A stretch of DNA of 41,473 nucleotides from an uncultured Eubacteriales bacterium (GTDB lineage Bacteria; Bacillota; Clostridia; Christensenellales; QAND01): NCBI GenBank assembly GCA_900546685.1, contig UREB01000001.1:1-41473 (forward strand), written 5' to 3'. The notes under the pieces are model-generated. The model had not been told where the DNA came from and ran no database searches. It was given only the letters and a program-made list of their open reading frames with translations. Below are positions 9,850 through 12,371 of the stretch, piece after piece. Each line of letters opens with the position of its first letter. Within the stretch, counting starts at the first letter, position 1. The translations under genes were made by a program, and so were the position numbers.

Positions 9850-10053
9850 TCAGCGTTTCGTTGTTTGCAGCGTATCCTTTTTCAGCGGAATCTCATACAC
9901 ATCGGTATACGATTCCACTTCCGCATCATCGAGCGGGGGCGCATAACAAAGGCCGGTACATTCTGTGGCGGAAGCCACGGAAAACAGGTCGTCGGTGAAT
10001 TCATCGGCAAATTCGACGTTGTAGTCGTCTTTTTTCTTAGAATCATCCATCAT
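9850..10053 (-). CDS. Small hyper-acidic protein (67 aa), function unknown
   Basis: AGGAGG lies 5 nt upstream of ATGATG (complement of 10048-10053), 43 nt downstream of the glycosyltransferase stop, and is followed by a terminator. 17 D/E versus 7 K/R, with one CxxxC (ECTGLC). No recognised family. Confidence 0.55.
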   Translation of the reverse strand: MMDDSKKKDDYNVEFADEFTDDLFSVASATECTGLCYAPPLDDAEVESYTDVYEIPLKKDTLQTTKR

Positions 10054-10096
10054 GATTTCCTCCTTCCCGCTCTAGTGTGGCCTGTTCTGCTTTGGC

Positions 10097-11206
10097 TCAT
10101 ACCGATTCTTTCGCGCTGCGCTGCGCCATGGCGTTTTCCGCCCGTTTTTGCGCAAAATACGCGCGGTTGTAGGCCACGGATGCATCGTCCGGCTTATAGG
10201 CGGCGGCTTTTTCATTGTAGGCGGCCGCCTTTTCCCATTGCCCCATAGCATCGTAACACAGGCAAAGCTGGATATACGGGATATAGCCGTAGCAATCCGG
10301 CTGCACAAAGCCGCGCGTTAGGTCCATCGGGCGGCTCAGCGCCGTTTGATACCAAAACACCGCCGTTTCAAACATGCGCCTTTGGTAAAACAGATGGCCC
10401 AATTCACAGCAGGTCTCCGCCCGCGGGGCATCGTATACAAAGCTCCTCAGCAGCGCCTGCAGCGCCTTTTCTTCCTTGCCCAGCTGATGATAGCACAACG
10501 ATAGATCCTGGCAGGCGCCAATGTTGTTTTCCACCCAGCCCCGGCCCTCTGCCAAGAAAGCCTCGAACACATCGGCGGCTTGCTGGTAGGCGGCATGGTA
10601 ATACAGCTCGCGGGCGTAATAATACTGCGCCCGCGGCTCCAACGCTTCGCCGCGATCCACCATAGCCTGGTAGATGCGCAGGTTGCGGTCCGGGTCTCCA
10701 GGCTTTTCCTTTCGATGCTCAATGGCAATATCGCTATGCAGAATGCGCCCGGCCGGGGCAATGACCTCGTGCACCGCGCCCTCCCAGACAAAGCCTGCGC
10801 CGCGCTTTACGATGCGCTCCCGCTCGTAGGCAAAGGTAGGCTGGCCTGCCGCATCAAAGGCAACGCGGTACTGCATCATCACCAGATCCACCGCCCCGTC
10901 CATGGTGCGCTTTAATTCCCGGATGCGCTCGATGTTTTCCGGCGTTACGACGTCGTCGGCATCCAGCCACATGAGATAGTCGCAGGTGCCTTTGGAAAAG
11001 GCAAAGTTGCGCGCCTGGGCAAAATCATCCTGCCAGGCAAAATCATACACCTTCTCCGTATACTGCCGCGCAATCTCCTTGGTTTTATCCACAGAACCGG
11101 TATCTACAACGACCACCTCATCGGCAAACTGAACAGCCGAGGCCAGGCAGCGCGACAATACCTCCTCTTCATTTTTTACAATCATACAAACGCTCAGCGT
11201 ATGCAT
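10097..11206 (-). CDS. Family-2 (GT-A) glycosyltransferase fused to C-terminal TPR-like repeats (SunS/GmaR-type protein glycosyltransferase architecture)
   Basis: Start trimmed to MHTLSVCMIVKNEEE, with AAGGAAGG RBS 9 nt upstream. GT2 hallmarks: VVVVDTGSVDKT and WLDADD (DxD). The C-terminal half has helical repeats: YYYARELYYHAAYQQAADVFEAFL, LCYHQLGKEEKALQALLRS, GHLFYQRRMFETAVFWYQTAL, LCYDAMGQWEKAAAYNEKA. Confidence 0.85.
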   Translation of the reverse strand: MHTLSVCMIVKNEEEVLSRCLASAVQFADEVVVVDTGSVDKTKEIARQYTEKVYDFAWQDDFAQARNFAFSKGTCDYLMWLDADDVVTPENIERIRELKRTMDGAVDLVMMQYRVAFDAAGQPTFAYERERIVKRGAGFVWEGAVHEVIAPAGRILHSDIAIEHRKEKPGDPDRNLRIYQAMVDRGEALEPRAQYYYARELYYHAAYQQAADVFEAFLAEGRGWVENNIGACQDLSLCYHQLGKEEKALQALLRSFVYDAPRAETCCELGHLFYQRRMFETAVFWYQTALSRPMDLTRGFVQPDCYGYIPYIQLCLCYDAMGQWEKAAAYNEKAAAYKPDDASVAYNRAYFAQKRAENAMAQRSAKESV

Positions 11207-11321
11207 CCTCCAGAACCTTCCTTTCGCTTGGTGTATGGCAGCGCCGTACTCACACGAACACCGCCCCCTTTGCATAGTATGAAAAGGAGACAGATGTCTT
11301 CACACAAAAGGAAAGGAATGG

Positions 11322-12371
11322 GTGAATTCAATGCCAATCTTCCAACAACGAGGTCAATACCGTTGCCCGCGCTGCGGCCGTTTGGTCAACGCTGGCAACT
11401 TTTATGGCGATGGATGCTGCTTTTGTTGCCCGCCCCCGCCGGGCCCCCGCTGCATCACCGGGCCTACCGGACCCACTGGGCCAACCGGGCCTTCCAGCGG
11501 CATTACAGGCGCAACCGGCGCCACGGGTGTGACAGGCCCAACAGGACCTACGGGCGCCACAGGCGCTACCGGCGCTTCCCCCGTATTTTCGATCGGAGAG
11601 GTTATCACCGCTGAGCCGGGCGTACCCGCCTCCGTGACGATTACGGGCAATCCCTTAACGCCTATCTTAAACTTTGTCATCCCGCGCGGCGCTACGGGCG
11701 CAACCGGGCCGACTGGACCTACGGGTGCTACGGGCGCTACTGGGCCGACTGGACCTACGGGTGCTATGGGCGCTACCGGGCCGACCGGATCTACGGGTGC
11801 TACGGGCGCTACTGGGCCGACCGGACCTACGGGTGCTACAGGCGCTACTGGGCCGACTGGACCTACGGGATCCGATGGGGCTGACGGTGTCGATGGCGTA
11901 ACGGGACCGACCGGCGCTCAGGGCTTTGCCGGCATCCCCGGCAATGATGGTGCGGATGGTCTGCCTGGCCCCATGGGCCCGACGGGCGCAACTGGTGCTA
12001 CCGGCGCTACAGGTGCTACTGGCATGAAGGGCGCTACCGGGGCTACTGGGCCGACCGGGCCGACAGGATCCGATGGGGCCGATGGAGTTGATGGCATCGA
12101 TGGCGTAACGGGACCCACCGGCGCCCAGGGCTTTGCCGGCATCCCCGGCAATGATGGTGCGGATGGTTTGCCTGGCCCCATGGGCCCGACGGGCGCAACT
12201 GGCGCCACCGGTGCTACAGGTGCTACGGGCGCCACGGGCACAAAGGGTGCAACGGGCTCTACGGGTGCCACCGGCGCTACAGGCGCGACCGGGCCGACAG
12301 GACCGACCGGCAGCCGTGGTGCCACAGGGCCGACCGGGCCGACCGGACCCACCGGGCCAAAGCACAGCTAA
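11322..12371 (+). CDS. Collagen-like triple-helix-repeat protein with Cys-rich N-terminus (BclA-like GXT repeats)
   Basis: 349 aa by the track (GTG at 11322; alternative ATG at 11331). The first 46 residues hold 7 Cys, all within residues 15-44 (CPRC...CCFCC...C). About 13 G-X-Y triplets follow, then a 38-aa non-collagen segment ([37 protein letters not shown]). Then come 75 uninterrupted G-X-Y triplets (hand-counted), mostly GAT/GPT, ending GPKHS. No signal peptide or anchor motif. Confidence 0.9.
11868..12254 (+). repeat. Tandem duplication (about 198-nt unit, two copies) inside the collagen-like gene
   Basis: Both copies start GGATCCGATGGGG (11868 and 12066). They share a near-identical core, GGCTTTGCCGGCATCCCCGGCAATGATGGTGCGGATGGT(C/T)TGCCTGGCCCCATGGGCCCGACGGGCGCAACTGG. 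Protein unit: [10 protein letters not shown](ID)[37 protein letters not shown]. Confidence 0.85.

Follow-up and report, generated by a model that had tools for sequence, protein, structure and literature searches.

What does a glycosyltransferase (GT) with a tail of tetratricopeptide repeats (TPR) modify, when its gene lies back to back with that of a collagen-like protein and is followed by that of a small acidic peptide? The question is raised by positions 9,850 to 12,371 of a 41,473-nucleotide stretch of an uncultured Eubacteriales genome (contig UREB01000001.1), the whole of which is called the window here. An earlier annotation from the DNA letters alone, referred to below as the sequence-only reading, had proposed that the three genes form one glyco-module served by nearby CDP-alditol and dTDP-rhamnose genes. 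We propose instead that the GT and collagen-like genes constitute a two-gene cassette of the Clostridioides difficile SgtA/BclA3 type that glycosylates a spore-surface fibre, a reading to which we assign a probability of roughly 75%. Its established parts, as judged by sequence comparison, are the orthology of the GT to SgtA, the conserved adjacency of the GT to BclA-type genes, and a Thr-rich repeat with a Cys-rich N-terminus as in BclA3.

The glycosyltransferase and its conserved neighbour

The GT gene was annotated as follows.
10097..11206, minus strand: predicted SgtA-type protein O-glycosyltransferase of 369 aa, assigned from Pfam, SgtA homology, a PDB profile search, an AlphaFold2 (AF2) model and Foldseek
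Residues ~1-165 of this protein: GT-A/GT2 catalytic domain, DxD motif D82-A-D84-D85
Residues 174-368 of this protein: helical/TPR domain

The description of this gene product as a 369-aa GT2 enzyme with C-terminal TPR-like repeats is borne out by the Pfam search and the AF2 model. The hidden Markov model (HMM) search proposed alongside that description returned Glycos_transf_2 and TPR for the GT (ORF 2; ORF, open reading frame) and Collagen for its neighbour (ORF 3). Glycos_transf_2 (PF00535) matches the GT with an E value of 7e-24 and several TPR models match across residues 254-368; the AF2 model, with a pLDDT of 95, has a GT-A fold followed by an all-helical part from 174 to 368. An extended ORF of 392 aa is not used, because the homologues align from the Met of the 369-aa form. 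In the index of the assembly collection the GT sequence appears in 421 blocks, and the places listed are metagenome assemblies.

In C. difficile, the sgtA gene lies immediately upstream of bclA3, and its 358-aa product consists of a GT-A domain (aa 1-260) and four TPR (aa 262-358); SgtA places beta-O-N-acetylglucosamine (beta-O-GlcNAc) on Thr residues of the BclA3 collagen repeats with UDP-GlcNAc and Mn2+ (PMC7157674). To find the C. difficile enzyme we started from a Romboutsia homologue of 26% GC, and the search led to a 358-aa cluster named for C. difficile. On contig L091 (L numbers are our handles for loci) this protein is encoded directly upstream of an ORF starting MSRNKYFGPFDDNDYN...VGPTGPMGPRGRTGP, which are exactly the BclA3 peptides given in Table 1 of PMC7157674; the 358-aa reference protein is SgtA because its bclA3 neighbour matches these peptides. 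The window GT resembles SgtA (CD3350) in size and in its architecture of GT-A and about four TPR, and the two share 50% identity over 354 aa, along the full length (E 2e-142). In an alignment of 25 GT sequences including the window protein, 81 columns are invariant, among them the DxD motif D82-A-D84-D85. By this sequence evidence the window GT is an orthologue of C. difficile SgtA.

The genomic neighbourhood tells the same story as the enzyme itself. As in the SgtA/BclA3 (CD3349) pair, the window GT adjoins a collagen-like protein that has GXT repeats and no signal peptide. A scan of one genome per species yielded 80 loci with GT homologues of 49-58% identity, which come from Oscillospiraceae, Lachnospiraceae and other Clostridia. 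A collagen-like ORF lies within 600 bp of the GT in 54 of the 80, and in 44 of the 60 loci that have at least 2 kb of flank on both sides; in these 54 loci it is upstream on the same strand in 36, downstream on the same strand in 17 and divergent in one. All but one of 84 collagen-like ORFs are found within 3 kb of the GT, with a single one in the remaining 590 kb of flank. Pfam Collagen matches all 84 of these partner ORFs and BclA_C matches 29; their median share of triplets with Thr at the Y position is 54%, and 50 of the 84 partner proteins carry at least three Cys in the 40 aa preceding the collagen region. All-against-all clustering of the ORFs returned no other conserved neighbour of the GT, just BclA-like relatives and antisense shadows of collagen ORFs. 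The adjacency counts and the clustering therefore define the GT and the collagen-like protein as a conserved two-gene unit, and the earlier idea of a dedicated substrate-plus-GT cassette is upheld by the SgtA homology and by this conservation. The supposed trio fared differently: the GT-collagen pairing recurs in 54 of the 80 loci, the peptide in none.

Many GT loci hold two collagen-like genes. In the Lachnospiraceae-type loci (L018, L022, L040, L043, L049, L052, L054, L057, L058, L062 and others) the GT gene is located between a short collagen-like gene upstream and a long one, of up to 665 aa, downstream. In many Oscillibacter-type loci (L008, L010, L029, L051, L055 and L075, and on the minus strand L007 and L063) BclA genes stand in tandem and have an N-terminal domain in common, ...SIAMEELxLSHILNAEGEKLQYILG..., without a Pfam match; these loci also hold paralogues in which a Pro/Cys-rich linker takes the place of the collagen region.

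A fusion of GT2 to TPR is the architecture of protein- or peptide-directed glycosyltransferases such as SunS and GmaR. The window enzyme shares with SunS/ThuS and with Listeria GmaR a GT-A domain fused to a helical/TPR substrate-binding domain; the closest solved relatives of the GT family profile in the PDB search are the GmaR catalytic domain (E 3.6e-38) and SunS/ThuS (~1e-23), and the best full-length Foldseek matches of the AF2 model are SunS and ThuS (TM 0.63-0.66). The top NCBIfam match is likewise SunS (TIGR04195). These likenesses, together with a peptide gene 43 nt downstream whose product has an invariant Cys in a conserved motif, would suit a glycocin or other RiPP-like (ribosomally synthesized and post-translationally modified peptide) pair, in which a SunS-like GT modifies that Cys or a Ser/Thr within SATECTGL. 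The SunS model, however, scores only 55.5 bits against a cutoff of 350, and the GT is therefore not a glycocin transferase. The locus also differs from those of SunS, ThuS and GmaR in having no glycocin genes, flagellin genes or mogR near the GT, and no transporter or peptidase genes lie nearby; the probable substrate here is the collagen-like protein, not a glycocin or flagellin. With the synteny of the peptide gene described below, by which it is already largely refuted, we regard the glycocin-like pair as very improbable.

The collagen-like protein and its candidate promoter

The collagen-like gene and its signals comprise the following features.
11254..11281, plus strand: candidate sigmaK-type promoter of the collagen gene, AC-N16-CATAGTATG, one mismatch to AC-N16/17-CATA-N3-TA
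11322 (GTG, 349 aa) or 11331 (ATG, 346 aa)..12371, plus strand: BclA3-like collagen-like protein, probable GT substrate (Pfam Collagen, E 1.4e-40)
11322..11459, plus strand: N-terminal Cys-rich segment, aa 1-46 (CPRC...), no signal peptide
11460..11579, plus strand: first short collagen segment of 4+9 triplets, aa 47-86
11580..11687, plus strand: 36-aa non-collagen insert, aa 87-122
11688..12362, plus strand: main collagen region of 75 uninterrupted GXY triplets, mostly GAT/GPT, aa 123-347
12390..12423, both strands: terminator hairpin shared by the collagen gene (plus) and the convergent epimerase gene (minus)

The uninterrupted run of 75 triplets reported earlier is real; the account of the repeats was incomplete in that it missed the 13 triplets of aa 47-86, which the 36-aa insert splits off. 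The protein has 88 GXY triplets in all, 60 of them with Thr at Y. The main region contains an internal duplication of ~57 aa, and just two residues, HS, stand between its last triplet and the stop codon. The number of repeats varies among strains of the species, giving proteins of 268, 337 and 349 aa (L087, L088, L089, L090). The collagen gene breaks metagenome assemblies, which leaves gaps of 100 N. Long ORFs inside it in other frames or on the other strand, between 11402 and 12365 (minus) and between 11674 and 12384 (plus), for instance 11667..12365 (minus, 232 aa), are shadows of the GXY repeat and not genes.

Three properties of this protein had been singled out as unusual, and one of them is. 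The seven Cys counted in the first 46 residues are all there by position 44 (15, 18, 32, 33, 35, 36 and 44), but such a motif is common to BclA3 and most partners: BclA3, like the window protein, has a Cys-rich motif immediately before its collagen region, in its case CDCHHCCPPSC. BclA-type proteins are assembled inside the mother cell and accordingly have no signal peptide or wall anchor, so the lack of both is expected here. The lack of a C-terminal globular domain is the truly exceptional feature as far as sequence comparison goes. The window protein, unlike BclA3, ends two residues past its last triplet; Pfam finds Collagen only and no BclA_C domain (PF18573) in it, and every strain seen has this tail-less form, as does a relative with a 76%-identical GT. 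Elsewhere the partner proteins continue for at least 130 aa after the repeats; the exceptions are ORFs interrupted by an assembly gap or a contig end and, possibly, L074.

The BclA proteins of Bacillus and Clostridioides are O-glycosylated on Thr of their GXT repeats. BclA of Bacillus anthracis/cereus is collagen-like and Thr-rich with a repeat number that differs between strains, as in the window protein; it forms a spore-surface fibre O-glycosylated on the repeats with rhamnose and anthrose, the counterpart of which in the window is a prediction from sequence. Unlike it, the window protein has neither a BclA_C domain nor a Bacillus-type exosporium leader, its N-terminus being the Cys-rich segment.

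A second difference from BclA3 is the 36-aa insert, which is similar to phage tail proteins: it matches the phage minor tail family phrog_6614 in PHROGs (E 1.4e-8). It is conserved among the strains and in the relative with the 76%-identical GT, and an F-x-[IV]-P-x-G motif similar to that of the insert is present in six of the 84 partner proteins and recurs in a few further bacterial collagen-like proteins (L003, L022 and L056); a PDB sequence search with the insert gave no meaningful match. The insert may serve in chain registration or trimerisation, standing in for the missing BclA_C domain. That the insert and the collagen repeats match tail-fibre and minor-tail families of PHROGs could also be taken to mean that the gene is a remnant of a phage tail fibre. 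We find this scarcely credible, as the gene has no phage genes beside it, many samples show the locus in a syntenic, chromosomal setting, the N-terminus is of the BclA3 type and the partner GT is SgtA-like.

The spacer between the two genes was described earlier as a divergent interval of 115 bp, and its length is confirmed. Upstream of the collagen gene it carries ACGAACACCGCCCCCTTTGCATAGTATG (11254-11281), a one-mismatch copy of the sigmaK-type motif. From 11254 to the collagen ATG the DNA is almost identical to that of the relative with the 76%-identical GT; the half of the spacer nearer the GT has diverged. In the same comparison the 5' leader of the collagen gene (11282-11321) is nearly 100% conserved. 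This leader holds a short inverted repeat, GGAGACAGATGTCTTC, whose folding energy is not significant (z -1.5); the repeat might serve as a regulator site or form an RNA hairpin. A search of the spacer for sigma-70 promoters found none.

The C. difficile pair also has sigmaK-type promoter motifs: AC-N17-CATA-N3-TA upstream of sgtA is a regular-expression match, and the one before bclA3 was read by eye in the sgtA-bclA3 spacer. In a C. difficile sigK mutant, CD3350 (sgtA) and bclA3 are down (PMC3789822). Among the partner genes, 16 of 85 have a strict sigmaK motif within 200 nt upstream, a density of 0.96 per kb where the background is 0.045 per kb (~21-fold enriched). We infer from the candidate motif that the window collagen gene may be under sigmaK control.

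Proposed function of the pair

On this basis we propose the following route for the two-gene cassette. The candidate sigmaK-type promoter would drive synthesis of the collagen-like protein in the sporulating mother cell, where the protein would also be assembled; assembly there is proposed because the protein has no signal peptide. The TPR domain of the cytoplasmic GT-A+TPR enzyme would hold the extended collagen-like chain while the catalytic domain transfers sugar to Thr at the Y position of the GXT triplets, of which each chain offers 60 candidate sites. By analogy with SgtA the sugar is most probably beta-O-GlcNAc from UDP-GlcNAc, transferred in a metal-dependent reaction via the DxD motif. 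The chains would trimerise into a triple helix. In F-ENA, 701 residues give 196 nm, implying ~0.28 nm per residue (PMC12357932), and at that rise we estimate that the 225-residue main segment would extend ~60 nm, with the short proximal segment in addition. The Cys-rich N-terminus may fix the protein to the outer spore layer. The identity of the sugar, the spore-surface location and the role of the Cys residues are thus predictions of this scheme.

Several points weigh against it. Spore formation by the window host, which unlike C. difficile is an uncultured gut species of Clostridia with ~58% GC, would follow only indirectly, from the cassette itself and two sporulation-type promoter candidates. 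No sporulation gene was found in the 41-kb window or in ~7-9 kb past each end, in a scan that covered essentially all window ORFs with Pfam and NCBIfam and the gene tables of the flanks, a ~60-kb sample that is uninformative about the genome as a whole. The window collagen-like protein does not have the C-terminal domain that nearly all partners carry. The window pair is divergent, whereas the C. difficile genes are co-directional and GT and collagen-like genes are co-stranded in 53 of the 54 other cases. On the GT side of the spacer no sigmaK or sigmaE motif stands at proper spacing. Finally, the sugar specificity of the GT at 50% sequence identity would be an extrapolation from SgtA.

The same absence of spore genes in or near the window, the missing BclA_C head and the departure from the usual gene orientation would favour another role for this enzyme and substrate, one outside the spore: sporulation may have been lost and the protein may serve in a vegetative fibre, in a cell-surface matrix or inside the cell. 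Against this, the protein has neither a signal peptide nor a wall anchor by which vegetative cells could export it, the spacer yielded no sigma-70 promoter, and a sigmaK-like -10 element is conserved. The adjacent peptide gene moreover keeps a forespore-type promoter, which suggests that sporulation sigma factors are still in use. We therefore consider a non-spore role unlikely, though less so than the other alternatives discussed here, and retain the spore-surface cassette. The cassette belongs to the known SgtA/BclA3 kind, with divergent gene order, absence of BclA_C and the phage-tail-like insert as its variant traits.

To our knowledge, work on the SgtA/BclA pairing has until now been confined to C. 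difficile. That the two genes form a module conserved so widely, in commensal Oscillospiraceae and Lachnospiraceae as well as in related Clostridia, suggests that the spores of gut commensals commonly bear O-glycosylated collagen-like fibres, which could play a part in transmission, adhesion and immune recognition. The pair can be used as a genomic marker of spore-surface loci in uncultured species. The variant without a C-terminal domain and the small-protein family described below are modest new leads and not surprises. A broader reading has two separate parts: the tail-less, Cys-rich, insert-bearing protein would stand for a class of its own among glycosylated fibres or tethers of the spore surface, in a very common uncultured species of Clostridia of the human gut, and the peptide would belong to a family of small acidic proteins not described before, expressed in the forespore, with at least 1,200 clusters, with named genera of the Oscillospirales type and with an invariant Cys-x-Gly in the E-C-T-G-L motif. 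We offer this combination tentatively and consider it doubtful as a whole.

The acidic peptide gene and the sugar-nucleotide genes

Downstream of the GT gene the following features were assigned.
9799..9846, minus strand: intrinsic terminator after the peptide gene, hairpin of -30.8 kcal/mol (z -3.1) followed by a U-run
9850..10053, minus strand: small acidic protein of 67 aa, net charge ~-10, member of a large uncharacterised family
10073..10102, minus strand: candidate forespore-type (sigmaF/G-like) promoter of the peptide gene, GTATG-N15-GGCCACACTA, overlapping the GT stop codon

The 67-aa peptide has its own ribosome-binding site (AAGGAGG) and a directly following terminator, as had been noted, and the terminators described after the peptide gene and after the collagen gene are both present. 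It was previously regarded as an orphan and is in fact a member of a family with at least 1,239 cluster representatives at E<=1e-3, or 203 at E<=1e-10, in a profile search of 50%-identity clusters. Among the 150 best matches listed, nearly all are 55-135 aa long; the named members, from Anaerotruncus, Anaeromassilibacillus, Acutalibacteraceae and Ca. Egerieicola, are all annotated as hypothetical. Family members were taken from loci L081-L083, L092-L098 and L099-L178. The family core is VASATECTGLIPxPPxxExEAESYxxIYDIP, with invariant Cys and Gly in the E-C-T-G-L motif. Of the CxxxC pointed out earlier, this first Cys is thus invariant; the second is not conserved. Pfam, NCBIfam and PHROGs gave no match for the window peptide, nor did Pfam and NCBIfam for 44 family members, and a literature search for the family motif returned nothing. 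The AF2 model is of low confidence (pLDDT 62) and mostly disordered. Between the window and its relative L104 the peptide codons differ by 23 synonymous and 8 non-synonymous changes, a sign of purifying selection, and the gene is therefore real.

The distribution of the family decides against a place for the peptide in the module. A peptide HMM matched none of the 80 GT loci; the family gene usually stands alone, as it does in Anaerotruncus and one further lineage, and among 54 distinct metagenome members a GT is nearby in only this species and two close relatives. When window 9850-15760 is set against L104 (2370-4198), the L104 peptide proves to be 92% identical and its gene lies directly beside a CoA-transferase gene, whose product is 90% identical to that of the window, and the whole IspD/epimerase/collagen/GT block is absent; this 4.3-kb block is therefore present in some members of the group and absent in others.

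Several lineages share an upstream motif, G[TA]AT[GCA]-N14-16-GGnnACACTA, ~25-35 nt before the ribosome-binding site, and a promoter candidate stands at the corresponding position before family members in L084, L081, L092, L103 and L104. Of 41 family upstream regions, 16 contain the -10 pattern G[GT]nnAnAHTR, compared with 10% of shuffles; the pattern resembles the Bacillus subtilis sigmaF/sigmaG consensus. The C. difficile sigmaF/G consensus is very similar to that of B. subtilis, sigmaF having a G upstream of the -10 element (PMC3789822). L104 keeps the candidate without a GT gene ahead of it. The peptide gene is probably independent and expressed in the forespore, as the candidate promoter suggests. 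Because it has its own promoter, shows no linkage to the GT elsewhere and is retained in L104 without the GT or collagen-like gene, we judge from these comparisons that it is not part of the glyco-module and lies by the GT only by chance of this lineage; the three-gene module is abandoned. The same observations count against the glycocin-like pair considered above, as does the single conserved Cys of the peptide, which has no double-disulfide helix-loop-helix pattern.

On the other side of the cassette lie two groups of sugar-nucleotide genes.
12429-14194, minus strand: overlapping pair of an IspD/TarI-like cytidylyltransferase and a short-chain dehydrogenase/reductase (SDR) epimerase/reductase (best NCBIfam models below their cutoffs)
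18237-25047, minus strand: rmlA/D/B/C, an ABC-2 exporter (permease and ATPase) and two GT2 genes

We read the first pair as a probable CDP-alditol synthase (Bcs1/TarIJ type), an assignment that the below-cutoff models do not establish. The sequence-only reading was right about the presence and distances of both groups, the pair starting 57 nt downstream of the collagen gene and rmlACBD lying ~7.4 kb from the cassette; their casting as the donor supply is not supported: such genes occur in 0-1 of the 80 related loci, and the characterised orthologue uses UDP-GlcNAc (PMC7157674). Their closeness, with the ABC-2 exporter and further GT2 genes at 7-13 kb, might also suggest that the GT is itself a wall or polysaccharide enzyme working with the CDP-alditol pair and the dTDP-rhamnose/ABC-2 locus, the collagen-like gene being incidental. 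This earns hardly any credence. Searches with tblastn of the window epimerase, IspD-like, rmlABCD and GT2 genes against the 80 GT loci gave 0-1 matches each; the IspD-like cytidylyltransferase gene is missing already in the relative with the 76%-identical GT, and the sole conserved neighbour of the GT family is the collagen-like gene. A further difference from the Bacillus BclA system is that the rml genes of the window are not linked to the GT/collagen cassette in related genomes. The 18237-25047 segment looks like a rhamnose-containing wall-polysaccharide locus unrelated to the cassette, and the sugar-nucleotide genes are best read as a separate wall-polysaccharide context.

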